Shown: positions 16,252 through 56,042, numbered from the stretch's first letter. The stretch is 56,042 bases of DNA from a virus (IMGVR_UViG_3300017973_000002:1-56042); one strand, 5' to 3'. The notes: generated by a model from the sequence alone, not told the origin. A program made the numbers and translations.

Positions 16252-16279
16252 TTGACGACTTTATTAGTTATGTTATAAT
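16252..16279 (+). promoter_or_regulatory. Near-consensus sigma-A promoter with extended -10 (TTGACG-N16-TGTTATAAT), no gene downstream
   Basis: TTGACG 16252..16257, TATAAT 16274..16279, TG at 16271..16272. Confidence 0.6.
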
Positions 16280-16285
16280 AAACGC

Positions 16286-16369
16286 ACACACACCGTTTTT
16301 TGTAATAAACACACAGACATAAAAAGCTAGTTGAGTGCAATTCGCCTGCATAGTCAACTAGCTTTTTTT
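16286..16369 (+). ncRNA. Candidate ~85-nt small RNA with a CA-repeat 5' seed (CACACACACC) ending at an intrinsic terminator
   Basis: Bounded by the promoter at 16252..16279 and the terminator at 16321..16369. No ATG or SD inside. The seed is complementary to GGTGTGTGTG elements at six early-gene RBSs. Confidence 0.45.
16321..16369. terminator. Bidirectional intrinsic terminator
   Basis: AAAAAGCTAGTTGA ... TCAACTAGCTTTTTTT. 9-bp GC-containing stem (16326..16334 / 16354..16362) flanked by an A-run and a T-run. Confidence 0.8.
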
Positions 16370-16378
16370 GTGCTTATT

Positions 16379-16919: not shown

Positions 16920-16950
16920 TTTTCTCCCGCCTTTTTGTTGTAATCGTCTA

Positions 16951-16981
16951 AATTTTACCATATTTTGAATTAATAGGTATA
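16951..16981 (-). promoter_or_regulatory. Extended -10 promoter (TGGTAAAAT) for the abrB-like operon
   Basis: Minus-strand TGGTAAAAT = 16960..16952, about 25 nt upstream of the RBS. The -35 is weak. Confidence 0.45.
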
Positions 16982-24100: not shown

Positions 24101-27100
24101 AACCACCAATGCTTCCTAGTTTTGTATGGTATTGCAAATTCTTATAGCTGTGTGCTTCATCGACAAATAAAGCATCAACGCCTAATTCTTCAAATGAAAT
24201 CCCTAAATCTTTTTTATCTTTCTGCATTAAGGTTTCAATCTTTGCTTCATGCTTTTCAATCACTTTTTGAATTTCTTTTACTGTTGGCGACTTCCCATCT
24301 TCACTTTGTACGCTTTCAAGGAACGAACGTAATTTTGAAATTTCAGAATGAAGAAACTCTTGTTCATTCTCTGGGTTCAGTCCAAGTCGTTTAAAACTTT
24401 CGTAACTCATAATGACTACATCATAGTCACCATATTTTACATCAGCTAATGAACGGAAACGTAAAGCACGGTTCTTTTCAACTTCCATTTCGTACTGTTC
24501 ATCGCTCCACTTAGCATTACGAGTAATTGTGATCCCTGCAATATCCTTTTCTGTTTTCCCAGTCCCAATGACTTTGATTTTAGCGTTCGGATACGAATGT
24601 TGGAATTCCCTTGCGTGCTGTTCCATCATAAAAGTAGGAACAACCATCATTGGTTTTTTGATAATTCCTAGTCGTCTACCTTCCATGATTGAAACTTGCA
24701 TTTCTAAACTTTTTCCCGCACCCACAACATGTGCCAGTAACGTATTTGCTGAACGTAATATACGCATAACCGCATCTTTTTGGTGCTTGTATAACTTATA
24801 AACTGGGTTTAGGTTCGGAATTTCAACTGGGTTTTCATCAGTTCCATACATTCTCTCGCCATCGTATGTTCTTGGAACAACACTTGTGAATGAATCATTA
24901 TAGAGTTTCGTTAAATTTTCATTTACATCTGGTTCACCAATGACGAATTGTTTTAATTCATTCTGCAACTGTTCAACCACACGGTTAGAGATATTCAAGA
25001 TTTCTTCCCTTGCTTTATCTTGTTCACGCATAGGAGTATTTTCTACATCTAACGGTGGTTTTGATGATTTCATATTCATTAAATCTTCAATGACTTGGAT
25101 TCCAGTTTTTCCATACTTCGCATACTTGTGGCTAATCGCAAATGTTTCATTATTATGATGAGAACGTCCAGTTGTCGATTTTAACCCCCACGTTGCTGTA
25201 TCAAAGTTATGTGTGACTGTTACATTACTTAAACCAAGCGTTTTTTCAATGAATCGTTTGTAAACTTCTTTTGGAATCCACCCTTGTCCAAAACGAATGT
25301 CGTCAGCAATTTGTTCCATTGTTAATTGTGACGGAAGAACCTTTTCAAGTTCTGCAATATTACGGTTTAATCCATTCGCTTTTGCTACTGCTAATTTTTT
25401 AGCGATATTTCCACTTAAATACTCATCGTCCGTTACATACGCTTTTTCTTGTGGGTCATAGTAAATGTGACCATCTTTTTCAAGTTCTGCGATTGTATCG
25501 TCTTTTGATTTACCAAGTAAGTCGGAAACTAATTGAAGGTCTAACTCACCACGATGAACAAGTGATAAATTAAGCGCTTCTTTTACATTACCTTTTGTAT
25601 CCATTACAACATCTGGAAATGTTTGACGCGCCTTGAATAAATCAACTTTTGCCCACTTCTTACCATCTCGTTTTTCAAGTGAACGAAGCATAGCAACTGT
25701 ATGAACATCTTTTTCAAATGGTGTGAGTACCCCTTGTTTATTCATTTCACCGTGGGTTTTCACAAAATCATCATACATTTTATTTAACGCTTCACGTTCT
25801 TTTACCATATCTTCTGACGGAATGGCTTTGTTTTCTTCTTTTGCCATTAAGTCTAAGTAAGATTGGCGAACCTTTAATGAATCTCTTAATACTGGAACGT
25901 GTTCTTTTGCTACTTTATATGGAATCCATTGACCATATGTGTACTGGAAGAATACACCACCACGCTCATGAATTGCCCCTTCATGTTGGCCGATTGTTTC
26001 TTTTGCCCAGTCCTCACTTACAGCGTTATTCACTTTTACTGGCACATCACTTACCGCATTACCGTGAATAAAACGATTTTCAAAAATCTTTTTAATCGTT
26101 TCAAAAGCCTTTTTGAACTTTTCTTCGAATCCATCATTCGTAAACACTAGTTCGTCATGGTAGCGAGTACCTTCTTTCATTCCCCCTGCAAGTTGCTCTG
26201 GGTTTGCAATGAAGTATTCATTTAATTTACTGCGACTTCTACCGTCATAGCTGACATTTTCTGCGATACGTGAAGATGTGTGATTACTACCTTGTACTTT
26301 TTTACGGAAAAATAAAATATCCGTTGCAACATTTGTGCCTGCGTGTTTAAATGCTCCTTGCGGTAAACGGATCGCTTCAAAAAAGTCTGTATTCGCTTCA
26401 ATATATCCACGAACTTGTTGACTTTGCCATTCCTTCCCATCAAGTGAGCTAGTCGAAGTGATTAATAAACCAATACCACCTTCTTTTAAAAGGTCTAGGT
26501 TCTTCACTAGGAAGTAATCATGCACGTTATGTGTCGCATAAGTCATTAAAACTCCGTTATGGTCTAATTTCCCTTTTGGTAGACGGTTGCCTTCTTCGTC
26601 TTTTTTCTGACCTTTCGTTTTGTCCGTGTAAGTTAAATCATTTACTTTCTTATCAACGAACGGAACATTACCAATAACAACATCAAAGCTACCTTCGGTT
26701 GCGCTAAAATTTTGGAATCCCATATGATGATGGGTTTGGTTCGGATACAGTGCCTTTGTAATTCGGTGCGATAAATCATTCAGTTCAACTGTTGTGAATT
26801 TATGTTTCCCTTTTACTTCATCAACTGGGAACGCTCCAACAAACATACCGTTACCAACTGAACTTTCTAAGATTTTTCCACCATCAAAGCCTGCTCCAAG
26901 TAATACATCATACATTTGACTAGCGATTTCGTGACTTGTGTAAAAACTTGTTAAGACTGTATCACGCATACCTTCCCACTCTTGCTGTGTAATCAATCCA
27001 CTTTCTACGTGTGACTGTAATTCAGCATATTGTGGTTTTGATCGGTCAAAATATTCTGGTAAACCGCCCCAACCTTGATATTTAGCTAGAGTATCTAATT

Positions 27101-30100
27101 CCTCTGCTGTACCAAAACGGTCTTCACGTTCTAACATTTTAAGAACGTTAATTGCTTTTATGTTGTTCTCAAAACGTTTTTTTGCATTTGGTTCAAAAAT
27201 ATCCTCTGTAATTACATGGTCTAACGGAACAATTCGCTCATGAGGGATTCCATTATTTGACGGTGACGTGATAGTATCTCCTGCTGATCCATTCGGTTGT
27301 TTTGTCCCTTGATTGGATTCTGTACTAGGCTTGCTGTCATTTGTTCGTTTACTGCCGTCATTAGGTCTTTCTCCGTCTTTTCCAGAAACAGTTTCAGTTG
27401 GTTTGTTTGTTTCAGTTCCTTGTACTGGTTCGGTTGGCGTTCCATTAGGTAGCTTTCCAGTTCCGTTAATGTTGGAAACATTCTTTTCACCCTCTTTATT
27501 TAATCTTTCGAGCGCTTTAGCAATAACTAGTTTTGATGAACGGTCATTAAACATTTGGTCTAAGACTTTCATTTCACCATCACGATTATTTTCCATCGCA
27601 TCATTCATACGGTCTACTACCCAGTCTGTGATATGTCTATTGAATATCATTGACAAGTTATTTACTGAATCATTTGGGTTTTCTTTAACATATGTTTGGA
27701 AGTTAGGAAAGTTTGCTAATTTCTCTGCAAAGTGATTTACACCGTCAGTAAATTTTTCAAGACTTGCTTCTCCGCTTCCCAAATCGGTATTCCCTTTGCC
27801 AGTAACGTCTGCATTTCCTTGTTCATTTCCTTTTGTTTCTGTATCGCTAGGGTTTGGAGTTGATGAAGGCTCATCTCCTTGTACTTCATTGGTTGTGTTC
27901 TCTCTAGGTGTTGGAGAAACATCAGTCCGTACCTCGTTAGCATTGTTTTTCACCTCTTGACCAAGCATTTCTTTTGCTGAATCTAATTCTTGTTGCCTTG
28001 CAAAATTAACTGTATTATAAAAATCCTCTAAATTAAAGAAACCATGCTTTTGAACGAAACTCTGTGCAGATGGAATACCGTATGCTACATCTCTTAATTC
28101 TTGCAATTTCGAACCTTCCATTGCATATTCCATGTTCATGTAATCATTTACATCAGCTACACTAAAGATATGCTTCATTTTCTTTCCATTAATATCTTCA
28201 TTGCGATATGGCATACCTAACAATTCGCCTTTAATTGGGAATATCCATTCTTGCTTAGGTTCTTGCCGTCCGAAACGCTCCATTGGTGTGAATTTAACAG
28301 TTGCAGATTTTTTATTTTCACTGTATGCCATTTCTGGGAATCCACTACCATCAACGCTATCTTCATCTAATTCAGCTTGTTTAAAATCTTCGAATTTATT
28401 ATATCGTTCAGCAGTATCAACAAATGTTTTTAGTTGTGGTTTTTTAAGTGCTTCAACTTTTTCTTTTAAAATTTCAGAAGGAGGAACTACATCGTCCTTA
28501 TTCCAAAATTGCATTGCGCCATGACTTTCCATTCCCGAAACTGTCAATCCTGCGGGTGCTAATACTCTTAACATTTCACCTTCTTTATAATCTGTTTCGA
28601 GTACCCCAGTAACATTACTTATCTTGTTTTTTACAAATGCACCTTTTTTAAATTCAGTTTCATTTTTTGTGACCGTTTCTGACCCTTGACTTTCATTTAC
28701 ACGTCCATTATCTTGCTGTGTAGTTTCATTATAAGTAGGAAGTTTTTTATTAATACGGTCAAGTGCTTTTTGCATACTAATTGTAATGCCATTTGGACGG
28801 TTACGTTCATATGTTACTTTACCAATATGTGCAGACTTACGTTTGAATCTTTGGTCTGTTATTAATCGTTCTAGTTCATGTGGTAAACGGCCATCGAATG
28901 TATAACGAATAATTTTACCATCTTTTTCAAGTTTTCCTTCTTTTGCAAATGGAATTTGAGCGTATCTTTCTGCTTCACTTAGATTTATGTCGTTCATGAT
29001 CTCATTCATACGTGCAGTGTGTTCAGATAACGTATTGATATTGTCATTTATTTGTTTTTCGTCTTGCGCTTTTTTATCTTTCTTAGCTTGTTCTTCTTGA
29101 CGTTTTTCTTCTTCTTTTTGTGCTTGTTCTTCTGCAATTTTACGATTTTCTTCTTCTGTTGCTTGACGTTCTGCTTCTTTCATACGGTTAAAATCTTCCG
29201 CATGTGCAGGGTCTTCCGTTGGTGCATTTTCCCCTAAAATTTGATTACGGATATTGTCAATTTCATGGGTAGTTAAACTCATTTCTTCCCACATTAATTT
29301 CTCTTGAATGTTATTGGTAGACAGATAAGGGTCTTTTTCTAACATATCCTTAACAGCATTATATTCTTCTGAATGGTTCGTTTGAACTTCTTGTCCACCA
29401 TCAATAAAATCTTTTGTCATTTCAATTACATCATGGTTCGTTTCTGTGTAACGGTCTGGATAGTTTTCTACTAATTTTTGTTTCATTTCATCTATGTTCA
29501 TATCAAACATATTGTAAACGTCCCAACCGTGCTGTGTATCTTCTAATACAACAGCTACATGACGATCCATTTTCCGTATCTTATTAACAAGAGATTTTCT
29601 TTCTTTCTTACTTAATGCTTGATAACGGTCATATTCCATTAAATGATGATAAATATGTTCGTCCTCTGGACTAATATCTTCTGCTTTACTGCGTTCTTTT
29701 TCTGCATACGCTTCTTGTCGTTTTTGATTTTCTTCTTCTTGTTTACGTTGTTTTTCTTTTTCAGTTGCTTTATCTTCTTTGTTTTGTTCAACTTGCTTTT
29801 TAAAATTATCTAAATGGGTTTGAAGTCCTTGATTAAACTCGATACCATTCGCTTCTGCAAATGCTTTTAGTTCTTCAAGTTTTTTCATTCGGTGCTGTGG
29901 TGTACGTTTGCCCATTGTGAAAAATTCTTTCTTCATTTCATCAAACTGTGCTTGTGCGCCTTTTTCAGACGTGCGACCAGTTTCGGCTACTTTTCCAGTG
30001 CCTTTTTTATGTTGCCATTCATATAAACGTGATGTTGGAACAACATGTGTACCAATTTTTCCTCCTGCATCAACCGTGATGTAATGTCCACTTGGATCAC

Positions 30101-32927
30101 GTTCGATTACCGTACCTCTTGTTGAATAACCGTCATTTAAAACTTTTGAAGCATTGCGTATTGGTTCTCCTTCTTCATCAAGTGAATCAGTCGTATACGA
30201 TTTCCCTTTAAAATCGTGAATAACTCGCCAACCTACTGTATCCCCTACATGATATGGGTGGTCAATCATTTGTGGTTCGTGGCCGAAACTATCGAAAACT
30301 TGTTTCAATTCTTCATGGTTATCCATTTGTTCAATTGGAATACTGTAAGTTTGATGATTATTTGAATTATGGTCATGCACATGAACTGATTTTTGCGCTT
30401 CAAATGGTCTTGTAGGGTCAATATGAAAATCCTTATCTACCTTAAATGGTATGCCATTTTTTGAAACTATTTGACCTTTAATAAAGAACGGTGAATCTAC
30501 TGTTGGTTCATTTACTGGTTGTTGCTCTTGAACTGGTTGATGAACTTCTTGTACTGGCACATCATGGATTGGTGCATTTGCTAATACTTCTGCATGGTTC
30601 AATTGTTCACCAAAATAAGCATTGTTAATTCGGTTTACGTCACGGTTTGTACGTGCTGTGTCCATTTCGTTTATATAATCATGTTGGTCTTGTGGTGATA
30701 ACTGTGAAAAGAATGGATACAGTGCATCTTCTGTATGGTGAAGTGGATCATCATTTAATTCTGGTTTCATAAATTTTTGAACTAAATCACTTGCACCTTC
30801 TACATGATTAACGTTATTTGGATTACGAAGAATCGCATGTGTTGGAATTTCTTGTGTTGCACCAGTTTTTGTATTTTTAACTGTTGTTTTATCAAGGTTC
30901 GGACTATATCCCATTACTTCTAACTGATTTTTACCAGTCGTTACGGTACTTCCAACTGGAATCAATTGGTCAAGAATGTTCTGTTTATCGTAATGGAATG
31001 GGTCGCTATGATGTGGTTGAACTTGTTCTTGAACTGGTTCTTCATTTGGAATATGGAATCCCATTTCGCCTACTTGCCCATTATCAATTACCGGACTTTG
31101 AACTGGATTATCAAGTACCGTTGCTTCTGGTAGAGAAGCCTGTGGGTGTTCAACTTGTGAACGACCAATTTGGAATTCTGTTCCTAGTGCATTTTGAACA
31201 ACTAACATAGAAGGGTCTTTTGAATCGACTACTGTTAGTGGAATCCCTTTATCTTTCCAGATAACTGTATCGCCATTCTCTACGATTGTACCGACTGGTT
31301 TTCGTGTTGAGTATTGTTGTTCCTCTGCTTTTTGATTCATTTCTTCTTTAATTTTTAAGTCATTAATATAATCATGCGTTGCATTTGTGATAACGTCCTC
31401 GCCACCATTTTGAACTAAGTCCTCGTAAGCGAAGTCATGCGCTTGTTCTTCTGTCATGCCTTGATTTAAACCGTGTTGTTTTGCGGTATCGAAACGTCTT
31501 TTTTGTTCATCTGATAAATTACTTTGTACTTTTTCATCAACATGGGTTAATATGTCATGCGCTGTATGAACACCAGTCGTAGCACCACCCATTAATGCAC
31601 CAAGCATACCTGCTTCAATGGTTGATGGGTCAGTCCATGAGAACGGATCACCTAACGCATTAGCTGAAATTCTATTTTGGTTTGCTTCTTGTATACCTTC
31701 GGTAGCTGAACCACCTGCTGTTTTTAAAGTAACTGCGCCAACCTTACCAACTTTATCAAAGATTTTACTCGTTATAGGAAGATGACCAAAACCAAGTTGC
31801 CCTGCATCGAGTAACGTATTTGTTATCAGATTGTCACGGAAGTCTTTTCCATATGCTTCTGTTGGATTAAGTCCACGTTGTTCTGCTTGGTTATAAACAC
31901 TTCCTGCTTCTTGCATAGAATCTTCCGTGGCCATTACTAAACCACTCGCAAGATGATTAGTAAGAATCCCTGCAAGACCTTGTAGTTTATTAATTTTTGA
32001 TAATCCCCCAAGTAATGCTGAACCAGTCGCATAACTAAGCGCAACGTTTGGTACGATTTCACCACCACGGTCAATTAAGTAATCTGGGTTCATTAAGTCT
32101 TTCATTTGGAACTGGTGATTATTAAATTTATCCAGTCCTTGAAAGCCTTTCATATTGTCATACGCATAGTCAGTGACACTTTTACCCATATCGTGAACTG
32201 TTTGGCTACCCATTTTATCTCCGAGGTATTTAAGTGTACCACCAATACCATCGCCTAGCATTTGGTCTGTTCCTCGTGTCCAACTTGCACCTAAACGTTC
32301 AATTGGACTTCGGTTTTCGGCTTTATCTGGTATAAGAATACCTCTTGCAAGGTCATATCCTGTTTTTAGATAACTTAGTGGGGTTTGTGGCAAGATGTCA
32401 TTCGCCACTGAACCAACTGATTTCACACCAGAATATATTTCAGAACCGACTGATTTCCCAATATCCCCTAATGCTTTCATGTAGCCCCCAACTTCATCTG
32501 TAAGGGTTGCATACGGCTTGTAGCCTTGTTGATAGCTAGATGGGTCACTTGGGACATTGGTATTCCCACTTTTGCTAGATGGTTCATCAAACAATTGGCG
32601 CATTTTATTTTCATAATGCTGTTGTTGTAAATCTTTTGCTTGTTGTTGGTATTGCTGTTGTTCTTTAATTCGTTGCCCTGCTTCATAAACATCATTGGCG
32701 TTTTGTCTTGCTTGTTCATGCGCTTGATTTTCAGCTTGAATTTGCGCTTCTTTCACTCGTTGCCCTGCTTCATAAACGTCATTGCTGTTTTGCCGTGCTT
32801 GTTCATGTGCTTTACTTTCATCTACAAGATCAGAAAACGGCATTTTAATGTTGTCTAAATTAATGTTATCCAAACTGCTTCGTTGTTCTTGGAGTTTCTT
32901 TTTCCAATAATCACTGTATTTTCCCAT
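18159..32927 (-). CDS. Giant 4,922-aa multidomain ('polyvalent', DarB-like) virion/ejection protein. Contains an N6-adenine MTase, an SNF2/DEAH helicase, an HExxH metallopeptidase and a C-terminal hydrophobic module.
   Basis: Single uninterrupted ORF. ATG behind GAAAGGAAGTGG. Motifs listed as separate features. Location in the late structural block after the SLT protein. Confidence 0.9.
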   Translation of the reverse strand: MGKYSDYWKKKLQEQRSSLDNINLDNIKMPFSDLVDESKAHEQARQNSNDVYEAGQRVKEAQIQAENQAHEQARQNANDVYEAGQRIKEQQQYQQQAKDLQQQHYENKMRQLFDEPSSKSGNTNVPSDPSSYQQGYKPYATLTDEVGGYMKALGDIGKSVGSEIYSGVKSVGSVANDILPQTPLSYLKTGYDLARGILIPDKAENRSPIERLGASWTRGTDQMLGDGIGGTLKYLGDKMGSQTVHDMGKSVTDYAYDNMKGFQGLDKFNNHQFQMKDLMNPDYLIDRGGEIVPNVALSYATGSALLGGLSKINKLQGLAGILTNHLASGLVMATEDSMQEAGSVYNQAEQRGLNPTEAYGKDFRDNLITNTLLDAGQLGFGHLPITSKIFDKVGKVGAVTLKTAGGSATEGIQEANQNRISANALGDPFSWTDPSTIEAGMLGALMGGATTGVHTAHDILTHVDEKVQSNLSDEQKRRFDTAKQHGLNQGMTEEQAHDFAYEDLVQNGGEDVITNATHDYINDLKIKEEMNQKAEEQQYSTRKPVGTIVENGDTVIWKDKGIPLTVVDSKDPSMLVVQNALGTEFQIGRSQVEHPQASLPEATVLDNPVQSPVIDNGQVGEMGFHIPNEEPVQEQVQPHHSDPFHYDKQNILDQLIPVGSTVTTGKNQLEVMGYSPNLDKTTVKNTKTGATQEIPTHAILRNPNNVNHVEGASDLVQKFMKPELNDDPLHHTEDALYPFFSQLSPQDQHDYINEMDTARTNRDVNRINNAYFGEQLNHAEVLANAPIHDVPVQEVHQPVQEQQPVNEPTVDSPFFIKGQIVSKNGIPFKVDKDFHIDPTRPFEAQKSVHVHDHNSNNHQTYSIPIEQMDNHEELKQVFDSFGHEPQMIDHPYHVGDTVGWRVIHDFKGKSYTTDSLDEEGEPIRNASKVLNDGYSTRGTVIERDPSGHYITVDAGGKIGTHVVPTSRLYEWQHKKGTGKVAETGRTSEKGAQAQFDEMKKEFFTMGKRTPQHRMKKLEELKAFAEANGIEFNQGLQTHLDNFKKQVEQNKEDKATEKEKQRKQEEENQKRQEAYAEKERSKAEDISPEDEHIYHHLMEYDRYQALSKKERKSLVNKIRKMDRHVAVVLEDTQHGWDVYNMFDMNIDEMKQKLVENYPDRYTETNHDVIEMTKDFIDGGQEVQTNHSEEYNAVKDMLEKDPYLSTNNIQEKLMWEEMSLTTHEIDNIRNQILGENAPTEDPAHAEDFNRMKEAERQATEEENRKIAEEQAQKEEEKRQEEQAKKDKKAQDEKQINDNINTLSEHTARMNEIMNDINLSEAERYAQIPFAKEGKLEKDGKIIRYTFDGRLPHELERLITDQRFKRKSAHIGKVTYERNRPNGITISMQKALDRINKKLPTYNETTQQDNGRVNESQGSETVTKNETEFKKGAFVKNKISNVTGVLETDYKEGEMLRVLAPAGLTVSGMESHGAMQFWNKDDVVPPSEILKEKVEALKKPQLKTFVDTAERYNKFEDFKQAELDEDSVDGSGFPEMAYSENKKSATVKFTPMERFGRQEPKQEWIFPIKGELLGMPYRNEDINGKKMKHIFSVADVNDYMNMEYAMEGSKLQELRDVAYGIPSAQSFVQKHGFFNLEDFYNTVNFARQQELDSAKEMLGQEVKNNANEVRTDVSPTPRENTTNEVQGDEPSSTPNPSDTETKGNEQGNADVTGKGNTDLGSGEASLEKFTDGVNHFAEKLANFPNFQTYVKENPNDSVNNLSMIFNRHITDWVVDRMNDAMENNRDGEMKVLDQMFNDRSSKLVIAKALERLNKEGEKNVSNINGTGKLPNGTPTEPVQGTETNKPTETVSGKDGERPNDGSKRTNDSKPSTESNQGTKQPNGSAGDTITSPSNNGIPHERIVPLDHVITEDIFEPNAKKRFENNIKAINVLKMLEREDRFGTAEELDTLAKYQGWGGLPEYFDRSKPQYAELQSHVESGLITQQEWEGMRDTVLTSFYTSHEIASQMYDVLLGAGFDGGKILESSVGNGMFVGAFPVDEVKGKHKFTTVELNDLSHRITKALYPNQTHHHMGFQNFSATEGSFDVVIGNVPFVDKKVNDLTYTDKTKGQKKDEEGNRLPKGKLDHNGVLMTYATHNVHDYFLVKNLDLLKEGGIGLLITSTSSLDGKEWQSQQVRGYIEANTDFFEAIRLPQGAFKHAGTNVATDILFFRKKVQGSNHTSSRIAENVSYDGRSRSKLNEYFIANPEQLAGGMKEGTRYHDELVFTNDGFEEKFKKAFETIKKIFENRFIHGNAVSDVPVKVNNAVSEDWAKETIGQHEGAIHERGGVFFQYTYGQWIPYKVAKEHVPVLRDSLKVRQSYLDLMAKEENKAIPSEDMVKEREALNKMYDDFVKTHGEMNKQGVLTPFEKDVHTVAMLRSLEKRDGKKWAKVDLFKARQTFPDVVMDTKGNVKEALNLSLVHRGELDLQLVSDLLGKSKDDTIAELEKDGHIYYDPQEKAYVTDDEYLSGNIAKKLAVAKANGLNRNIAELEKVLPSQLTMEQIADDIRFGQGWIPKEVYKRFIEKTLGLSNVTVTHNFDTATWGLKSTTGRSHHNNETFAISHKYAKYGKTGIQVIEDLMNMKSSKPPLDVENTPMREQDKAREEILNISNRVVEQLQNELKQFVIGEPDVNENLTKLYNDSFTSVVPRTYDGERMYGTDENPVEIPNLNPVYKLYKHQKDAVMRILRSANTLLAHVVGAGKSLEMQVSIMEGRRLGIIKKPMMVVPTFMMEQHAREFQHSYPNAKIKVIGTGKTEKDIAGITITRNAKWSDEQYEMEVEKNRALRFRSLADVKYGDYDVVIMSYESFKRLGLNPENEQEFLHSEISKLRSFLESVQSEDGKSPTVKEIQKVIEKHEAKIETLMQKDKKDLGISFEELGVDALFVDEAHSYKNLQYHTKLGSIGGLPNSNSQQAFDMYMKTSYMNKNNGKVVFATGTPIANSMAEMFTTLRYLAPNELKQLGMEHFDGWAQMFGSTVNSVELNTAGKFVEKTRFSKFTSVAELMRIFKSIADIKMADDIPYLKRPNADRITITTPMNEKQRTYLEIIVKRAEVVANGIDDPSKDNPLKLTGEGKQLALDYRLFDGTAESDPRSKLNEIANGVVDEYKRTTKDNVGVDGEGKEFKFDNGTQIVFMDIGVPKASDKVKEDDEGNNDSAFDKSMYQNLKDRLVELGIDENHIAFIHDYNKPDQKKKLSQLFNDGQIRILIGSTGKMGVGMNLQKRLTMLHHADPTWRPADIEQREGRIIRQGNFNPNVAIKTYVTEGSFDALMWNTLESKAKFIAQVMSGGTEIRSMDEIAEQIMSFSEIKASATGNTSMIELMKIEKEIRRLVDLQREFTKQKGKAIKLIAEYPEKKASLEETLAFDKKLEAKAKSTRGDDFHLVMDGKTFTDRKEGTEALREKVLDIRKKERKQNYQEVLGQLGGVDVVMYGRKSAYQSLGLDESLIIGEIAKDGTVNGYNRTQASDIIASEGRGTMARLENTVETLAKKGYSPYTEKQLAELEVAKKESEKKATENFTEGDKLRELENNVISLRQEALQHELTNNFDTVFRADGKLYTVTGIDYRAVPSKNKQKLKEDKPDYKTDVVVSEITDITKSSDPDLFGAGNETEHEIYTTGNSEQMPVTEFIRNYQRTDRKGITEGEATKRKHNAESIRQQEAEQRTKAEGENNTAKNLKAGKKDRIKNLLDTSLDGGTTNVISPKVAKKIGDRIANALDTVLREGYVRGGSQVRAMYDTHRKTGNVRGVEVHNLRVTAHELGHAFVNNVGFDVFKSLEKELTHVANEVYPDLTGLNPVEVAEEGLAELFQMYFIDNEGAKQLAPQSVSFIDTFIEGNKELKSAFDDAKEWATKDTEGDSFTRGSGTVKFPKDDKISKGIGEEYKVGKVDKHAPIRKKLTGTVKGFVARRVFDLVDFTIPFQDMEKANGDIKDFQLVKRVVLAGEGRDKAINSFTGWAKDNSGRNIIQYDNFSELPDHLHDLYLAIEREDKTVVPPSTLKRYENFYKEYKKDSSITNPKELANLHAISSRSLQEVAMDGLEKINLTLKGKALDGMRSPAIQQALDTILGKENDMSAFETLSVIMQAYRYNERYSRLNQDGEQKFEVNPMSENLTKKIIEDSRQLFPFLENIVKEYTENLSNIVLEKALQGTVIDEITKEKVKQGSSFYIPTYYASKREGLNGQDGQRKSARQTVKTYTGKQAIVLDFLTASMYKLVETETSAEFKGVLNSLENALRTEGMGQFGEIIPSQSYVARISAGQIDEAVATILNQDLGINPDDVEGSLSGHVFQIFMKRDQLSSKEPILMNWKYDSKGKRIPVFMRVAPDIYNALASMQPLTVGAYLRIVSRLSGFTRLTNIATAKFITDSLVRDTMGTAMQTNSGRGAIYSLFKGTALALGMDKNTTEQYINSGGMSASTESVLRNFRKANKMEDLLPTGDPTLFKLKNNKLFKVFNPSAYLHKGESIHRMGQWFAMIQKLAEEEGLSFNDIMDGRKKLSAEDRKKVEKIFISAGHEANIITTNFRLHGVNQGFRKVTMPVSFAHGSIQGMYRESTEFKTNPKRVLGRMAMKILPITLMMYFLAKALDRDDKYDDIPSYFRDRYWLMPTGFGYIAIAKPFMYALPMAYVERFLDSQFGSEEARKIGEDWFNPIDQAFSMPVVPIWISTMLELNSNKTYFGSPIVPDYLQKKPTLEQYDENTSSFSKWQAKAYFDYVNKGKSPEDMKYFGGISPMKMDYFIKGFFGKYGAGALELFMGKPQKDTPVVGNMFYTNDEFGSRNTTKFYDKAHEVVEGAKDRYGVKYHPNEIVKSYEGMRSTMTTIGAMKRDVSNANISPQEKKDYLSKLEKARMDIARIGNKYKPHDENNLNEVWNWVQQYNAQKKEQEKQLRKK
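18822..19148 (-). other. Three hydrophobic, transmembrane-like segments near the C-terminus of the giant ORF
   Basis: MAMKILPITLMMYFLAKAL (from aa 4594), YWLMPTGFGYIAIAKPFMYALPMAYV (from aa 4634), FSMPVVPIWISTMLEL (from aa 4687). Confidence 0.55.
21537..21551 (-). other. HExxH zinc-metallopeptidase motif within the giant ORF
   Basis: VTAHELGHAFVNN, with HELGH at aa 3793-3797. Confidence 0.6.
23067..24722 (-). other. SNF2/DEAH-box helicase core within the giant ORF
   Basis: Walker A GAGKS (aa 2736-2740, nt 24708..24722). DEAH (aa 2923-2926, nt 24150..24161). Motif VI QREGRIIRQGN (aa 3277-3287, nt 23067..23099). Confidence 0.85.
26658..26873 (-). other. N6-adenine DNA methyltransferase catalytic core within the giant ORF (motif I to motif IV)
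   Basis: Motif I ILESSVGNGMFVG (aa 2019-2031, nt 26835..26873). Motif IV NVPF, a (D/N)PP(Y/F) variant (aa 2087-2090, nt 26658..26669). Confidence 0.75.
32658..32810 (-). repeat. 87-bp (29-aa) tandem duplication at the N-terminus of the giant protein
   Basis: AHEQARQNSNDVYEAGQRVKE... / AHEQARQNANDVYEAGQRIKE... . CGTTGCCCTGCTTCATAAAC recurs at 32671 and 32758. Confidence 0.85.
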
Positions 32928-51478: not shown

Positions 51479-51507
51479 TTGCATACATCTATACGTATAG
51501 ATATAAT
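51479..51507 (+). promoter_or_regulatory. Consensus sigma-A early promoter (TTGCAT-N17-TATAAT) with palindromic operator CTATACGTATAG in the spacer
   Basis: TTGCAT 51479..51484, TATAAT 51502..51507, perfect 12-bp palindrome 51489..51500. Two further GTATAC palindromes at 51414..51419 and 51473..51478. Confidence 0.75.
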
Positions 51508-51540
51508 GAAGGTAATCAAATAGAAAAGGGTGTGTTGTTA

Positions 51541-51783
51541 ATGGACGAACAATTAACGAAAACAGATTTAAAAAAGGTTCTTAAAATGTTTAAGGAAATT
51601 ACTTTAAATGATGTAGATATGGAAGAATTCGCAAGTGAACTTATGGAAAAGTCTGAAACGCATTATGAAAAGGATAGAGAAGAAAAAGGGGAGCGTTATC
51701 AAGAAGTTGGTGAAGCATTTCAAGAATTAGCAGAAGCCTTTCAGAACTTATATGGATTACTTGAAGACCATTTGCACGATTAA
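51541..51783 (+). CDS. Highly acidic 80-aa first early protein
   Basis: ATG 51541 behind AAAAGGG. By my count about 23 D/E versus about 10 K/R. EAFQELAEAFQNL internal repeat. Confidence 0.7.
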   Translation: MDEQLTKTDLKKVLKMFKEITLNDVDMEEFASELMEKSETHYEKDREEKGERYQEVGEAFQELAEAFQNLYGLLEDHLHD

Positions 51784-51792
51784 ATATTACAA

Positions 51793-51835
51793 GCCGATTG
51801 GGTTGAGGTCTGGTCGGCAAAGGATTATTTAATCC
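51793..51835 (+). promoter_or_regulatory. Intergenic module A: GC hairpin plus palindrome GGATTATTTAATCC
   Basis: Hairpin GCCGA...TCGGC 51793..51818. Palindrome 51822..51835, 12-13 nt before the GGTGTGTG SD element. Confidence 0.6.
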
Positions 51836-51858
51836 AATATGCCAAAGGGGTGTGTGTA

Positions 51859-52080
51859 ATGGGGAATTTAAAAACGGTTATTAACTTTATGCAACGTAAC
51901 GATCCTAACGGTGACTGGAAACAGCTTCTAAAGGAATATCAGCAAGGCGATGTAACTCTTGAATTTCTACTTTGTGTCTGTGATGAAACTCTTACAGCTT
52001 GGCATAACGAATCTGGCGATGATGAATACTTATCAGTTCTTGTAACTTTACACAAGGCAGAAAAGGAACTGGTGAGTTAA
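51859..52080 (+). CDS. Hypothetical early protein (73 aa)
   Basis: ATG 51859, AAAGGGG RBS. The track start is an upstream GTG inside the GT tract. Confidence 0.65.
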   Translation: MGNLKTVINFMQRNDPNGDWKQLLKEYQQGDVTLEFLLCVCDETLTAWHNESGDDEYLSVLVTLHKAEKELVS

Positions 52081-52224
52081 ATGAAAAACTGGTCAATTGA
52101 AAAAAGAGTAATGGATAACATACTTCGTAAAATGCACAAACAGTGGCGAAAGCATTTCGATACGCAAGAAGATTATATGAAGTGGCAAAGAAAGAACTTC
52201 GCTAAGTTTCTTAATATGGATTGA
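52081..52224 (+). CDS. Hypothetical basic early protein (47 aa)
   Basis: ATG abuts the preceding TAA (GGTGAGTTAAATG). Below the track cutoff. Confidence 0.45.
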   Translation: MKNWSIEKRVMDNILRKMHKQWRKHFDTQEDYMKWQRKNFAKFLNMD

Positions 52225-52236
52225 ATAATCCTAACG

Positions 52237-52280
52237 CCTATCAACTTCGGTTGGTAGGTGATACATGGATTGTTAAATCC
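52237..52280 (+). promoter_or_regulatory. Intergenic module B: hairpin CCTATCAAC-TTCG-GTTGGTAGG plus palindrome GGATTGTTAAATCC
   Basis: Hairpin 52237..52258. Palindrome 52267..52280. Confidence 0.6.
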
Positions 52281-52298
52281 TAATCTTAGTGAAGGTGT

Positions 52299-52712
52299 GT
52301 GGTGTGTGTGGAAAGTAAAATTTTGCGTTTAAAGAAGGAAACACCAAAGGTTGAAGTAGATATGAATAGTAAGGTTAGTTCAATAGTTAAGGCATTAGGC
52401 GAATTTGCTTTAAACTATGTGACTATCCAAAAAGGGAAAGACGGTGCTTATAGCTACATGTGGATACATGGCAAATTTGAACTTGCTAATTATCCATTTG
52501 AAATAGAAGTGCGCATTGGCCATCATTACGTTTGGTTAGAACATATCTTTATTGACCAAACAGAACGCCAAGATGAAGTTACAACAGATGTATTAGTATC
52601 AATTGGCTTACCAGATAATTTGGTTACTTTCGCATTTACAGAGCATTTAAAACACCATGCTGATTTAGTTGATTACTTCAAACTCTTTGTTCCAGTTGAG
52701 GATAGAGTATGA
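52299..52712 (+). CDS. Hypothetical early protein (up to 137 aa)
   Basis: Track ORF. Start ambiguous (GTG 52299/52302/52308 inside the GT tract, or ATG 52362). Confidence 0.65.
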   Translation: MVCVESKILRLKKETPKVEVDMNSKVSSIVKALGEFALNYVTIQKGKDGAYSYMWIHGKFELANYPFEIEVRIGHHYVWLEHIFIDQTERQDEVTTDVLVSIGLPDNLVTFAFTEHLKHHADLVDYFKLFVPVEDRV

Positions 52713-53026
52713 GTTACGCGGTAGGTAAAGATATTGCTAGTGAAACTTTAAAGGCGCTCGGTGGTACTGGGCGCTTGTCAGCAATGATTGGTGCAAAAGA
52801 TTTTGTCTATTCTAAAGATGGTGCTGTTCGTTTTCGTTTCAAGATGTGCAAGAACGTCAATATGGCTCTAGTTTCTTTAAATGGCCTTGACCTTTACGAT
52901 CTCAAATTTATGAGAGTAAATACTAGGAAGTTTACATGTGATGATGTGGACGTGTTTGAAAATATATATGTAGAAGATTTGAAACGAACTTTTGAAGCCT
53001 ATACTGGCCTTTATCTAACTTTATAA
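52709..53026 (+). CDS. Hypothetical early protein (105 aa)
   Basis: ATGA overlap with the upstream stop. Track ORF. Confidence 0.7.
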   Translation: MSYAVGKDIASETLKALGGTGRLSAMIGAKDFVYSKDGAVRFRFKMCKNVNMALVSLNGLDLYDLKFMRVNTRKFTCDDVDVFENIYVEDLKRTFEAYTGLYLTL

Positions 53027-53041
53027 AAAGGTGTGTGTGTG

Positions 53042-53212
53042 ATGACAATTAACCAAAAGATTGCGCAAATGGAAGCTGAAATTAAGTTATTTAACTGGTT
53101 GCTAGGAATTGCGATTTTGAAAGGCAGAACGGAACTCGTTATGAAGTATTCAAGTGCGGTAGGCGAACTTTACTTGATGAAATTAGAATTGGAGGAAACA
53201 TTCTATGCCTAA
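53042..53212 (+). CDS. Hypothetical early protein (56 aa)
   Basis: ATG 53042 behind AAAAGGTGTGTGTGTG. Below the track cutoff. Confidence 0.5.
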   Translation: MTINQKIAQMEAEIKLFNWLLGIAILKGRTELVMKYSSAVGELYLMKLELEETFYA

Positions 53213-53411
53213 AAAAATTAAAGTCCACGTTGAATGTCGTTTGTGTAATGAAGATATACCATTAAAGGTTCGTCAAAAGGATATAGATAAGTACATGAGT
53301 GGTGAAGGATTAATTCAAGATATATTCCCTTACTTAACTGCACCAGAACGTGAGTTAATAAAATCTGGTACTTGTGGCGATTGTTGGAAAGAAATGTTTG
53401 GTGTAAGTTGA
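53205..53411 (+). CDS. Zinc-ribbon early protein (68 aa)
   Basis: CRLCNE ... CGDCW. GGAGGAAA RBS. Confidence 0.7.
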   Translation: MPKKIKVHVECRLCNEDIPLKVRQKDIDKYMSGEGLIQDIFPYLTAPERELIKSGTCGDCWKEMFGVS

Positions 53412-53641
53412 TGGCTAAAACGAATGATTATTACGCTATGTGTTTATGTGATATTGAACGTATCGCTAAAAAATTAAGGTATTCAAGTGATGATAGAGAG
53501 CAATTACGAGTGTTGGTTGTTGATACGGAGTTTTATGAAACTTATCGTGAAGAAGTATCAAGTGATGGTTTTGACCCCGATTGGTTAGAGAATTACATGA
53601 TAGATAAAATTAAAAATTTCCCTTTTAAACAAACAGATTGA
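53411..53641 (+). CDS. Hypothetical early protein (76 aa)
   Basis: ATG 53411 overlaps the upstream TGA. The track ORF's 5' extension is discounted. Confidence 0.65.
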   Translation: MAKTNDYYAMCLCDIERIAKKLRYSSDDREQLRVLVVDTEFYETYREEVSSDGFDPDWLENYMIDKIKNFPFKQTD

Positions 53642-53652
53642 TAATGCTAATG

Positions 53653-53695
53653 CCTATCAGTAAAAACTGGTAGGTTTTTATGGATTATTGAATCC
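53653..53695 (+). promoter_or_regulatory. Intergenic module C: hairpin CCTATCAG-TAAAAA-CTGGTAGG (+TTTTT) plus palindrome GGATTATTGAATCC
   Basis: Hairpin 53653..53674. Palindrome 53682..53695. Confidence 0.6.
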
Positions 53696-53720
53696 AATAA
53701 ATTAAAAAGGTGTGTGTTAG

Positions 53721-53900
53721 ATGGCGAAAATAATTGAATTCAAAGGTGACGACCTTTCGTGCGATTGTGGAAACAAACCTTCCTTAGATGGTTTTTTCCC
53801 ATGTACGGCTACTGGGGAACTTTGCGAACCAGTTGGAACTTGGGAAGGTCATTACAAATGCGCTAGTTGTGGCCAAATTTACTTATGGGAGGGTCAATGA
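53721..53900 (+). CDS. Cys-rich zinc-ribbon early protein (59 aa)
   Basis: ATG 53721 behind AAAAAGGTGTGTGTT. CDCG...C...C...CASCG. Below the track cutoff. Confidence 0.55.
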   Translation: MAKIIEFKGDDLSCDCGNKPSLDGFFPCTATGELCEPVGTWEGHYKCASCGQIYLWEGQ

Positions 53901-54268
53901 TGGGTTTTAAAATCATTCGTGATTTTGTTAGTGAGAAAGATGAAGATACTTATGCTGTTGGCAGAGAATCTAAACCCCCTCGTCATTGGATACAAGGTTT
54001 TGTTGGTAAAGAACTAAACGATCCAGTTTACAGCTTCAACAATGGCGAGATTAAAGTCCGTTTATTGGACGATGATGGAGGTATACATTATCATGCACTG
54101 GTTGATGATGATGATGAATCATGTGAGTTATTACTACGTTGGGGCGAAGCAATGTCTGGTGCTGTTGTAATTGATATGCACATTGATAGCTACAAGGCAA
54201 TGTATGGCGAACCTAAGTATACAAAGCTATTAAGCAAGGACGGTAAGTGGTATTCACACATGAGTTAA
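53897..54268 (+). CDS. Hypothetical early protein (123 aa)
   Basis: ATG 53897 (GGGAGGG RBS, ATGA overlap). The track ORF's 5' extension is discounted. Confidence 0.7.
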   Translation: MMGFKIIRDFVSEKDEDTYAVGRESKPPRHWIQGFVGKELNDPVYSFNNGEIKVRLLDDDGGIHYHALVDDDDESCELLLRWGEAMSGAVVIDMHIDSYKAMYGEPKYTKLLSKDGKWYSHMS

Positions 54269-54289
54269 ATTAATAAGGCGGTGTGTTGT

Positions 54290-54496
54290 ATGGATAAGAA
54301 AGAATTAACGGAATTGTGTGAGGAAGTTTTCGAGTTATATGTGAAGTGTTCAAAAGATACTTATGTATTCGCTCAAGTATGCGGTGTTCTTACTGCAACT
54401 ATTAGTTCTGGTAAAACAGAAGTTAGCATTGAAGAATTGTTGAAAAGTTCCAAAGAATTTATGCTCGAAAAATCAAAAATATATGGGGTGAAATAA
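54290..54496 (+). CDS. Hypothetical early protein (68 aa)
   Basis: ATG 54290 behind AAGGCGGTGTGTTGT. Confidence 0.65.
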   Translation: MDKKELTELCEEVFELYVKCSKDTYVFAQVCGVLTATISSGKTEVSIEELLKSSKEFMLEKSKIYGVK

Positions 54497-55806: not shown

Positions 55807-56042
55807 GGCAGAACGTAGAAGACAAGAAAAAGGCCATCAAATAGTTGGGTGGACAAAACACCCTTCTCCTAAAGAATTAAAAAGAGGTGATGGTTGGTTC
55901 GGTGAACTAGACAGAGTTTATAGAAGAAATGATAATTCAGTTGTTTGTATGATGCGTGATTTACAAACTGAATGGGGTAAGGTTACTCACGTTACAATAA
56001 CTGCACAACAACAGCCGAACTGGTCAGAAAAACAAATGTTCA
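55799..56042 (+). CDS. 5' part of the wrap-around early CDS (continues as 1..254)
   Basis: ATG 55799 (MNRAERRRQEKGHQ...). Open to the window end, and in frame with 30..254 through the 123-bp duplication. Confidence 0.7.
   Translation, partial: MNRAERRRQEKGHQIVGWTKHPSPKELKRGDGWFGELDRVYRRNDNSVVCMMRDLQTEWGKVTHVTITAQQQPNWSEKQMF
55920..56042. repeat. Terminal duplication, right copy (identical to 1..123)
   Basis: Same comparison. The repeat lies inside an ORF that reads through the junction in frame. Confidence 0.95.

Follow-up and report, generated by a model that had tools for sequence, protein, structure and literature searches.

GU-rich tags at six gene starts of a putative early phage operon and a candidate small RNA bearing their complement

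Described initiation-region motifs and phage small RNAs

Among the systems closest to the one analyzed here are the start-associated sequences (SAS) of Cluster K mycobacteriophages and their extended form (ESAS), described by Pope et al. in 2011 (PMC3203893); the function of SAS was still being called unknown in 2024-2025. Here we analyze a viral stretch of 56,042 nt (IMGVR_UViG_3300017973_000002:1-56042, hereafter the window), in which six plus-strand genes at 51.5-54.3 kb, standing at the head of a small-ORF operon, share a layout of an A-run, GGTG, (TG)n and the start codon. Like SAS, this tag is a short asymmetric motif over the Shine-Dalgarno sequence (SD), a few nucleotides before the starts of many non-structural genes, and it occurs in one orientation except for a single reverse copy away from gene starts. 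It is likewise conserved beyond what pairing with 16S rRNA needs, and about half of its sites carry an upstream inverted-repeat extension comparable to the ESAS subset. In contrast, the A-run-GGTG-(TG)n motif does not match the Cluster K consensus GGGATAGGAGCCC, the six sites lie in one operon rather than numbering 13-19 across the right arm, and the reverse copy has its own predicted consensus promoter and terminator. ESAS are reported to contain promoters, whereas none was found within the extension cassette here. Host phylum and phage type differ as well, in that this phage has a podovirus-type portal and its host is probably a member of the Bacillaceae. Given the different motif, the probable host and the portal type, we regard the tag as an analogue of SAS and not as a member of that class.

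The c4 antisense RNA of P1 and P7 (immI) also blocks the gene behind its target through coupling by way of icd, and multi-target small RNAs such as GcvB, acting on C/A-rich elements, and RsaE/RoxS, with C-rich seeds directed at G-rich SDs, occlude ribosome-binding sites (RBSs). Together with P22 sar and lambda OOP, c4 belongs to the phage small RNAs whose short seeds block an RBS, as covered in a review that also mentions GcvB (PMC12197685). The RNA proposed below would resemble c4 in blocking an RBS together with a coupled gene, and the ParM-like partition gene of this phage recalls P1, which is a plasmid prophage. However, c4 is processed from the transcript of its own target and controls one site (ant), and sar and OOP are cis-antisense RNAs with full complementarity, whereas a separately transcribed RNA would here address six dispersed, purpose-built tags. 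As with GcvB, RsaE and RoxS, one short unpaired seed is predicted to pair at or beside the SD of many targets and to repress translation. The polarity is reversed relative to GcvB, with a CA-rich small RNA and GU-rich targets, and, unlike for all three, the targets are the phage's own genes and the sites look purpose-built rather than like natural enhancer or SD sequences. Each known phage antisense RNA acts at a single site, and our literature search turned up no RNA that works in trans on many scattered sites of a phage's own genome.

Proteins provide the remaining comparison. In T4, RegB cleaves early initiation regions at GGAG, RegA binds to many such regions, and the targets are inactivated together at the early-to-middle transition (PMC3014915). 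T4 and the present phage are alike in that some early messages form a subset with a common motif in the initiation region (GGAG and A/U-rich operators in T4); the effectors are proteins in T4, whereas an RNA is proposed here.

Six tagged initiation regions

The six strings listed by a first-pass annotation of the window are all present where it placed them. Tag 1 (51524..51543; AAAAGGGTGTGTTGTTA + ATG, with a G/T tract at 51528-51539 and ATG at 51541) heads the first early cistron, ~10 nt into the 5' UTR from a putative early promoter (51479..51507, plus strand, TTGCAT-17-TATAAT). The spacer of this promoter holds a 16-bp perfect palindrome, ATCTATACGTATAGAT (51487-51502), which is likely its operator. 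Tag 2 (51844..51861; AAAGGGGTGTGTGTA + ATG, tract 51847-51857, ATG 51859) heads unit 2, to which TAAATG couples the gene at 52081-52224. Tag 3 (52291..52310; GAAGGTGTGTGGTGTGTGTG, a double tract at 52294-52311) heads unit 3, which starts at GTG 52302, as in the Logan call, or at GTG 52308, and to which ATGA couples the gene at 52709-53026. Immediately 3' of the stop codon TAA at 53024-53026 follows tag 4 (53025..53044; AAAAAGGTGTGTGTGTG + ATG, tract 53030-53041, ATG 53042), the head of unit 4, with overlapping genes at 53205 and 53411. Tag 5 (53704..53723; AAAAAGGTGTGTGTTAG + ATG, tract 53709-53718, ATG 53721) heads unit 5 with an overlapping gene at 53897/53900-54268, and tag 6 (54276..54292; AAGGCGGTGTGTTGT + ATG, tract 54280-54289, ATG 54290) heads unit 6, after which closely packed genes follow from 54496. 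All six tags lie on the plus strand. Within the first 3 kb of the operon, every cistron that follows a gap of at least 15 nt is tagged and none of the overlapping, coupled cistrons is. The description of these genes as a co-regulated subset stands insofar as they head six translational units of one operon, with co-regulation itself probable; the early assignment of the operon is suggested by its position and promoter type.

The pattern is not a product of chance, as the first-pass annotation had argued. Across the whole genome, GGTGTGTG occurs 6 times versus 1.24 +/- 1.0 expected, a count reached in 0 of 100 shuffles, and all copies except one lie just 5' of, or overlap, a start codon; the sole copy away from gene starts is on the opposite strand, at 16285-16294. 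The 7-mer GGTGTGT is not enriched in number (9 versus 6.0 expected in the genome), but seven of its nine copies fall within the six initiation regions. Among 76 gene calls, the final 10 nt before the start contain 9-10 G/T residues at the six sites and ~5.4 elsewhere. With a looser cut-off, a G/T-rich spacer is found in 6 of 18 early-operon genes versus 1 of 58 others (Fisher p = 5e-4), and in the lone gene outside the operon, 6622(-), an A-rich spacer comes after AAAGGTGTG; the tag itself was found in none of the 58 genes outside the operon. On an identical Logan contig, gene calls made independently put the starts at exactly the six positions given above. The tag ends 0-2 nt 5' of the start at the six sites, and at site 3 it overlaps its own GTG.

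Inspection of the individual elements narrows what is unusual about this architecture. GGTG is the usual SD core in this phage, and GGGGTGA is common to many of its genes, so the G/U-only spacer rather than the SD is the unusual part; the claim of an unusual SD-(GT)n architecture holds for the spacer and fails for the SD. The pure repeats are also shorter than the (GT)4-6 originally described, at (GT)3-5, and are interrupted in four of the six sites. In predicted mRNA folds the tags are mostly unpaired. By hand alignment, only AGGUG of the tag can pair with the 16S 3' end and (UG)n cannot, and the anti-SD energies of the tag sites, -8 to -11, are ordinary.

Three of the six tags are preceded by an intergenic hairpin cassette. 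The cassette 5' of tag 2 (51793..51835) comprises a hairpin at 51793-51818 and the small hairpin GGATTATTTAATCC (51822-51835), whose end is 13 nt 5' of GGTG. That of tag 3 (52218..52280) comprises GGATTGAATAATCC at 52218-52231, a hairpin at 52236-52259 and GGATTGTTAAATCC at 52267-52280, and that of tag 5 (53652..53695) a terminator-like hairpin with a T-run at 53652-53675 and GGATTATTGAATCC at 53682-53695, all on the plus strand. Sites 2, 3 and 5 thus share an ESAS-like extension, in which GGATTnTTnAATCC ends 13 nt upstream and is accompanied by a larger hairpin. They are copies of a single cassette, so these three sites are not fully independent; sites 1, 4 and 6 carry the tag without the cassette. 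Across the three copies the 8-nt tag is invariant, whereas the adjoining 13-nt linker has diverged, and the hairpins have diverged with compensatory changes and use G.U pairs in their arms. Invariance of the tag amid this divergence points to selection acting on it.

No close relative of this phage was found in any collection searched. Relatives with 71-75% TerL identity have ordinary GGAGG-type SDs and A/U-rich spacers, and two of them (L049 and L083) retain the small-hairpin-plus-SD cassette without the tag. The ordinary SDs of these relatives indicate that the tag is a lineage-specific addition.

A candidate anti-tag RNA and its predicted pairing

The reverse copy of the tag lies between convergent genes and coincides with the predicted +1 of a plus-strand promoter (16252..16279; TTGACG, 16 nt, TG-n-TATAAT) that agrees with the consensus at 11 of 12 positions. 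Only one other site in the genome scores 11/12, and it lacks the TG of an extended -10; the rough chance of the reverse copy coinciding with such a promoter start is ~3e-4. From this promoter to a predicted terminator extends a candidate small RNA of ~85 nt (16285..16369, plus strand). It comprises the 5' seed CACACACACC (16285-16294), U6 (16296-16301), a second CA motif, AAACACACAG (16307-16316), and a strong terminator hairpin (16321-16367) with U7 at 16363-16369. The seed is unpaired in both the MFE and centroid folds (z = -4.66), and the candidate contains no ORF and has no plus-strand gene downstream. Rfam 15 gave no match at gathering threshold across the whole window, and within 16200-16420 it gave sub-threshold, hairpin-driven hits only. 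By prediction, the candidate combines the features of a trans-acting small RNA, namely its own promoter, a Rho-independent terminator, the lack of coding capacity and an unpaired seed.

When the 18-nt 5' end of the candidate was scanned for duplexes against non-self loci on both strands of the genome, the six tags ranked 1, 2, 3, 4, 6 and 9. They are the six best of 76 initiation regions, at -16.3 to -19.2 kcal/mol versus -14.8 kcal/mol for the next best, and 0.9% of shuffled seeds yield six hits. These rankings are not independent of discovery, because the RNA was found via the complement of the tag, and energies of -16 to -19 kcal/mol for the seed alone are of moderate strength. When the full RNA was cofolded with the tagged initiation regions one at a time, the net energies were -8 to -18 kcal/mol, with predicted pairing that spans the SD through the start. 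Of the three roles that the first-pass annotation had considered for the GT tracts, a target for a CA-seed RNA is the one that we favor, given a promoter- and terminator-bounded candidate that carries the exact complement and has the six tags as its best predicted targets.

We place the probability that pairing between tag and anti-tag RNA represses translation of the early units at roughly 0.6. In this mechanism, the GU tracts would act as address tags between the GGUG SD core and the start of the first cistron of each unit. The RNA from 16285-16369 would be made by the genome's strongest sigma-A-type promoter and ended by the hairpin-U7 terminator, and its unpaired 5' end, CACACACACC-G-UUUUUU, would carry the tag complement, with the second CA motif behind it. 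Pairing is predicted to involve 8-10 bp, often reaching the A-run 5' of the SD, and the duplex would mask both SD and spacer along with the start-codon edge. 30S subunits would be kept from the six head cistrons, and overlapping downstream cistrons would also be silenced via translational coupling. The RNA would resemble the 16S anti-SD tail, with CACC followed by a U-rich stretch, and would reach further into the spacer; that extra reach is why it could out-compete ribosomes on tagged messages only. The net result may be a coordinated post-transcriptional shut-off of early ORFan genes, or their silencing in a carried state. The sequences, their places in the genome, the statistics and the computed structures and energies are direct results of this wholly computational analysis; synthesis of the RNA, its pairing in vivo, the repressive effect and the timing of action are what we infer from them. 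With a sigma-A-like promoter, synthesis of the RNA would begin together with that of its targets at the start of infection, and the mechanism needs an argument from threshold, timing or lysogeny.

Tags and complements in unrelated phages

A comparable layout of repeated tags and a single anti-tag occurs in an unrelated phage, which also speaks for the CA-seed role. On IMG/VR contig 3300033559_000068 (61% GC), GGTGTGTG occurs 13 times versus 1.3 expected. Twelve copies share the strand of the genes and lie at or immediately 5' of an ATG, and at least nine of these 12 tracts open ORFs of 69-371 codons in the non-structural region. The remaining copy is the only one on the other strand and lies within ACACACACACC, the 11-nt loop at the tip of a 56-nt hairpin (z = -4.9). 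This hairpin is located in the intergenic gap that follows the capsid genes, and 34 nt upstream is a second ACACACC. In relatives whose capsid protein is 80-84% identical, an ordinary terminator stands in its place and tags are absent. Because the contig was found by a search for the tag, only its anti-tag is an independent observation. At the level of the system, tag and anti-tag are both present in the L204 lineage and both absent from L207-L210.

The Cluster K1 mycobacteriophages Anaya and Adephagia each have a single reverse SAS copy, located in a gap free of coding sequence and carried by the apical loop of a hairpin. Stem differences between the two phages preserve or improve pairing, and the loop is invariant. 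In TM4 (Cluster K2), at least 10 sense SAS are present, and no reverse copy was found anywhere at up to 3 mismatches. TM4 indicates that tags of this general kind can exist without an anti-tag, such that an intrinsic role is possible.

One could suppose that initiation efficiency is set by the G/U-only spacer alone, which might be an unstructured or standby stretch or might pair with rRNA, with no trans partner and with the CA locus unrelated or an optional modulator. We consider this account unlikely as a whole, even with the fixed place of the mostly unpaired tags relative to the start, the SAS of TM4, and the recurrence of the GGUGUGUG core at or immediately 5' of 12 ATG codons in the unrelated high-GC phage in its favor. 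GGUGUGU is also complementary to the universal 16S segment ACACACC at 1394-1400 (the 1392R/1406F primer site), and GGCGGTGTGT of site 6 to 16S 1394-1403. That 16S strand, however, is found at the decoding site on the downstream side of the P site rather than alongside the SD-start spacer, and the 16S 3' tail is complementary to no part of the tract past GGUG. The closest relatives, moreover, express homologous cassettes with ordinary A/U-rich spacers, and the account leaves unexplained both the reverse copy at the +1 of the strongest promoter and the hairpin-loop copies in two other lineages. Shared ancestry would instead have the tag ride a mobile cassette of hairpin, small hairpin and SD that was copied as early genes shuffled, with the likeness of sites due to recency or gene conversion and their function that of a working RBS only. 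Regulatory cassettes (PeSL) mediate shuffling in T4-type phages, sites 2, 3 and 5 are clearly copies, and relatives have the same kind of cassette. We nevertheless find this explanation very doubtful, given tagged sites without a cassette (1, 4 and 6), cassettes of relatives without a tag, a tag that stays invariant while its flanks diverge and hairpin changes compensate, and a reverse copy for which it offers no reason.

Recognition of A-run-GGUG-(UG)n by a phage or host RNA-binding protein, either a RegA-like translational repressor or a nuclease that cuts the SD as RegB does in T4, has those two proteins as precedent (PMC3014915) and would suit a single-stranded tag common to a defined early subset. 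Most proteins of this phage are ORFans and could hide such a factor; these aside, RegA, RegB, KH, S1, CSD, Sm and CsrA-type domains are absent by Pfam from the proteins scanned or precomputed. A protein operator predicts neither an exact complement within a non-coding promoter/terminator unit nor the loop-displayed complements of the other two lineages, and we judge it distinctly unlikely. Binding of a regulator to double-stranded GGTGTGTG/CACACACC, as operator or roadblock, is highly improbable. It would make the 16285 copy an operator over the predicted transcription start that it overlaps, and the phage does encode several DNA-binding proteins (HTH, RHH and AbrB type), but a DNA site has no need to lie at -12 to -1 of the start in 6/6 cases and always on the coding strand. 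The G.U pairs in the cassette arms point to RNA, as do the RNA hairpin loops that hold the complements of other lineages, and the early promoter has a separate, different palindromic operator. We give still less credence to slippage, the tuning or phase-varying of expression through variable SD-start spacing that had been put forward for these tracts. They are dinucleotide repeats whose lengths differ among sites, but frequent slippage needs repeats longer than 3-5 units, those here are interrupted in most sites, the Logan contig matches the window at 100% identity across the region with no differing second genome copy on record, and the complement is left unexplained.

Repression by an anti-tag RNA, if true, would mean that one small RNA and six landing pads time or silence a block of early, probably host-takeover genes, a compact and portable design of orthogonal tag and anti-tag for controlling translation. 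It would also supply SAS, catalogued in hundreds of mycobacteriophage genomes since 2011, with a concrete and testable mechanism. A wider reading, to which we give tentative assent at less than even odds, draws on this Bacillaceae phage, the 61%-GC metagenomic phage and the Cluster K1 mycobacteriophages. It holds that unrelated phage lineages run an addressable translational switch, in which short tags on selected non-structural genes are fused to the SD and the complement on one non-coding RNA silences all tagged genes. The complement would be displayed at an RNA 5' end or in a hairpin loop. Were this reading true, the GU tags described here and the SAS of 2011 would be the same device, with the odd reverse copy as the regulator.

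Genome organization and the tagged early operon

The first 123 bases of the window (1-123) are identical to the last 123 (55920-56042), and a Logan contig (L047, SRR7004341) with 100% identity bridges the end to the start; the window therefore holds an entire phage genome, circular or permuted, with 55,919 bp and ~37% GC. Gene calls delineate a + strand operon made up of small ORFans (from 51541 through the junction to 1547; terminator at 1535-1557), a - strand replication operon (13921-2005: RecE-like, Erf, SSB, DnaD-like, DnaC-like, HTH regulator, dUTPase and sigma factor), a + strand ParM-like module (14004-16251) and a - strand late block (51349-16379: TerS, TerL, SU10/P22-type portal, a 4922-aa polyvalent protein, holin, endolysin and an AbrB-like protein). 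We label the small-ORF operon early on the basis of a sigma-A-like promoter (51479-51507) and its gene content, and the host is probably a Bacillus relative because one early protein has homologues in Bacillaceae (Robertmurraya, Sutcliffiella and others).

Several further features accompany this layout. A 16-bp perfect palindrome, ATCTATACGTATAGAT (51487-51502), takes up the spacer in the putative early promoter, and related half-sites, ATAGACGTATAG (13816-13835), overlap the -35 element of the replication-operon promoter; together they likely form a shared operator, to which a 49-aa ribbon-helix-helix protein (13601-13750) may bind. Between the early-operon terminator and the end of the replication operon lies a 440-bp non-coding stretch (1566-2004) that carries ACACACAAAA at 1785-1794, right after TATAAA, and in which no clear promoter/terminator unit was found. 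The ParM-like module comprises a 300-aa ParM/StbA-like actin-type partition protein followed by a small ParR-like ORF, with an AbrB/MazE-type regulator nearby (16635-16961, -). The 4922-aa ORF (18159-32927, -) occupies a quarter of the genome. It combines Eco57I-type methylase, SNF2/helicase and LPD38 domains and belongs to the polyvalent proteins, which are thought to enter the cell together with the phage DNA; on these same domains, its reading as an N4-like virion RNA polymerase with small hairpins as promoters was rejected.

The first-pass annotation had described six starts in the early operon (+ strand, 51.5-54.3 kb) at which a GT tract separates the Shine-Dalgarno sequence (SD) from the start codon. 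All six strings are present as described, and independent gene calls start directly after the tracts; the repeats, however, number (GT)3-5 rather than the (GT)4-6 first reported. Across both strands of the whole genome, GGTGTGTG occurs six times versus 1.24 expected (six or more in 0 of 100 shuffles), and the motif favors start codons over other positions, with 7 of 9 genomic copies of GGTGTGT falling within the six initiation regions. The last 10 nt before the start contain 9-10 G/T residues at these sites versus a mean of ~5.4 over 76 gene starts. GGTG is the usual SD core of the phage (GGGGTGA and similar); the unusual feature of the six sites is the G/U-only spacer, not the SD core. On hand alignment, we rejected the idea that SD/anti-SD pairing extends through the GU tract.

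Inspection of the first 3 kb of the operon reveals a tag at every cistron that follows an untranslated gap of at least 15 nt and none at cistrons that overlap or abut the previous stop (TAAATG, ATGA, TGATG, TAATG). Since tags occur only after gaps and never at coupled cistrons, the six tags head six translational units. Predicted folds leave the tags mostly unpaired in the mRNA alone, and no CA partner in cis was found within the early mRNAs, weak local pairing being seen at site 6 alone.

Sites 2, 3 and 5 sit in copies of one intergenic cassette, located upstream of the respective tags on the + strand (51793-51835, 52218-52280 and 53652-53695). Each copy presents, in order, a hairpin of 10-11 bp that contains G.U pairs and differs between copies in a compensatory way, a small hairpin GGATTnTTnAATCC, exactly 13 nt and GGTGTGTG; on alignment, the tag and small hairpin are invariant and the 13-nt linker has diverged. 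Two contigs with related TerL proteins, L049 (7289(-) and 6555(-)) and L083 (1773(-)), retain the small hairpin 11-13 nt 5' of ordinary GGAGG-type SDs with A/U-rich spacers and no GU tag. It follows that the cassette is old and that the GU spacer was added in the window phage specifically. No sigma-70 promoter was found within the cassettes, which may serve as RNA processing or stabilizer elements or as an element akin to the extended start-associated sequences of mycobacteriophages.

A candidate anti-tag RNA

Only one copy of GGTGTGTG is away from gene starts: it occupies 16287-16294 of the - strand, within an intergenic gap between convergent genes. The + strand sequence of the locus runs TTGACG-16-TGtTATAAT-aaacg-CACACACACC-G-TTTTTT-gtaat-AAACACACAG-...-long hairpin-TTTTTTT, which predicts a ~85-nt RNA (16285-16369) with CACACACACC as its 5' seed. 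A whole-genome promoter scan finds 11 of 12 consensus positions at two sites only, the putative promoter of this anti-tag RNA and 13818(-), the promoter of the replication operon; the anti-tag RNA promoter alone carries the extended -10 TG. In the predicted fold of the 88-nt anti-tag stretch the first 10 nt are free and a strong terminator hairpin follows (z = -4.66). The region holds no ORF and no + strand gene downstream, and the candidate matches no Rfam family. Taken as predicted, the promoter, free 5' end and terminator are the parts that make up a small RNA acting in trans through a 5' seed.

When the 18-nt 5' end was scanned against both genome strands, the tags ranked 1, 2, 3, 4, 6 and 9 among non-self loci, a ranking that is not independent of how the RNA was found, namely via the tag complement. 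With the same dependence, the six tags are the six best of 76 initiation regions, at -16.3 to -19.2 kcal/mol, with the next best following after a gap at -14.8; 0.9% of shuffled seeds reach six matches at the same energy level. Independent support for the RNA comes from its predicted promoter and terminator, from where its seed is located, and from there being a single reverse copy. When the full RNA is cofolded with each leader, a net gain of 8-18 kcal/mol is predicted, with duplexes extending from the SD to the start. The U-run 3' of the seed is predicted to be able to pair with the A-run 5' of the SD, and site 6 (GGCGGTGTGT) also matches the G following CACC in the RNA.

Upstream of the HTH regulator gene, a 360-nt gap contains two of the four genomic copies of CTGTGTG (5652-5681 and 5542-5548, -), and one stretch there is predicted to pair simultaneously with both CA motifs of the RNA (-24 kcal/mol). 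By this modeling, the gap may be a seventh target of the RNA, in the replication operon. The seed (16285-16296) also shares ACACACCG with the universal 16S rRNA 1394-1401 strand, and tag 6, GGCGGTGTGT (54277-54286), is complementary at every base to 16S 1394-1403, where primer 1392R anneals. This likeness may be coincidence or rRNA mimicry.

Tags and reverse copies in other phages

Close relatives of the window were sought widely. Megablast and blastn against GenBank phages and PLSDB plasmids returned no useful relative, cluster look-ups gave no protein at least 90% identical from any other phage (the JGI, ENA and Logan entries are the window genome itself), and the ParM-like protein had no homologue at E ≤ 1e-30 except itself. 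TerL relatives in IMG/VR are at most 53% identical and lack tags. The best in a 5.8-billion-protein set reach 67-75%, and the three relatives that span the early region (L049, L050 and L083) have ordinary SDs and no tags there. DUF5348 homologues occur without tags in unrelated Bacillaceae prophages, and scans of IMG/VR, JGI metagenomes and GTDB genomes for cassette and RNA-seed patterns gave chance or unrelated matches only. L050 (TerL 71%) has AAACACACACC at 3568-3578, eight nt 3' of TATAAT in a convergent intergenic gap; we do not count this as support because its four visible early genes all lack a GU tag.

An IMG/VR scan for AAAGGTGTGTG...ATG identified contig 3300033559_000068 (L204), a phage of 61% GC that shares no similarity with the window. 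Here GGTGTGTG occurs 13 times versus 1.3 expected. Twelve copies, mostly GGGGGTGTGTGATG, are found on the gene strand, either at an ATG or immediately before one; at least nine of these begin ORFs of 69-371 codons within the non-structural region, and a hairpin precedes many of them. Exactly one copy is on the opposite strand, in a 145-nt gap behind the major-head-protein gene and a 150-aa gene, where it contributes to ACACACACACC, the 11-nt loop at the apex of a hairpin of 56 nt (L204 17793-17848, in the stretch 17784-17848; z = -4.9). Another ACACACC closely precedes this hairpin on the 5' side, and a U-rich tail comes after it. Four contigs with head proteins 80-84% identical (L207-L210) have an ordinary terminator at the hairpin position and no tagged starts. 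Because the tag was the search key, its identity between the two phages is not evidence; what independently confirms the prediction of the pairing model is that a putative anti-tag exists, is unique and has this structural context. The placement of this anti-tag in the late capsid transcript fits late shut-off.

Cluster K mycobacteriophages carry a 13-bp start-associated sequence (SAS) located 3-9 nt 5' of 13-19 non-structural gene starts, about half with an upstream inverted-repeat extension; its binding partner could, according to the authors, be either protein or RNA (PMC3203893). Later papers still call its role unknown, and our literature search found no paper linking SAS to antisense RNA. 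In Anaya (Cluster K1), the single reverse SAS falls in the 385 nt of non-coding DNA that separate gp96 from gp97, where the gene strand reads GGCCUCCUAUCCC, and it occupies the apical loop of a long hairpin (L212 12834-12886 = Anaya 59,833-59,885). Adephagia, also K1, has the same hairpin between gp92 and gp93 (L213 about 6650-6710), its loop invariant and its stem differences keeping or improving pairing. TM4 (K2), which lacks the lysogeny module, has sense SAS and no reverse copy at up to 3 mismatches, on which a universal rule of SAS plus anti-SAS was rejected; across the three Cluster K genomes checked, the anti-tag is therefore common, not obligatory. Tags may also have an intrinsic role besides anti-tag pairing. 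The window system works like Cluster K SAS, to which it does not belong by sequence, and like a base-pairing small RNA with multiple targets; the searches made found no relative, Rfam family or paper that covers it.

Proposed repression by pairing and competing explanations

Pairing between the RNA and the tags probably represses translation of the tagged early units, a reading to which we give a probability of about 0.6 on support that is computational throughout. Of the roles suggested in the first-pass annotation, the one it listed first, a target for the CA-seed RNA, is the best supported. The anti-tag RNA would pair with the tags and block 30S binding at the six head cistrons, and the coupled cistrons behind them would be silenced in consequence. 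In having CACC and a U-rich stretch, the RNA resembles the 16S anti-SD tail, and its extra reach into the spacer would confer selectivity for tagged messages. Because its promoter is constitutive in type, the RNA could set a threshold for timing, such that it would end early-protein synthesis once the early promoter is shut; that promoter has the palindrome in its spacer, with related half-sites at the replication promoter. Alternatively, the RNA could keep leaky early messages silent while the phage is carried as a plasmid, a mode of carriage that the ParM-like gene and the lack of an integrase among phage proteins scanned or precomputed suggest may occur.

That the GU spacer acts by itself as an intrinsic translation signal is unlikely: the sense copies of TM4 without a reverse copy and the recurrence of GGUGUGUG speak for it, but relatives use ordinary spacers and the reverse copies would be left unexplained. 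Slightly less probable is a protein operator after the manner of T4 RegA/RegB (PMC3014915), a precedent for which no candidate domain was found here. Neutral copying of the cassette is doubtful, given a tag that is invariant amid diverged flanks and tags that also occur without the cassette. We consider an operator read in double-stranded DNA very improbable, and slippage at the repeats more so still. If the pairing between the anti-tag RNA and the tags holds, it would provide a direct experimental handle on SAS function.
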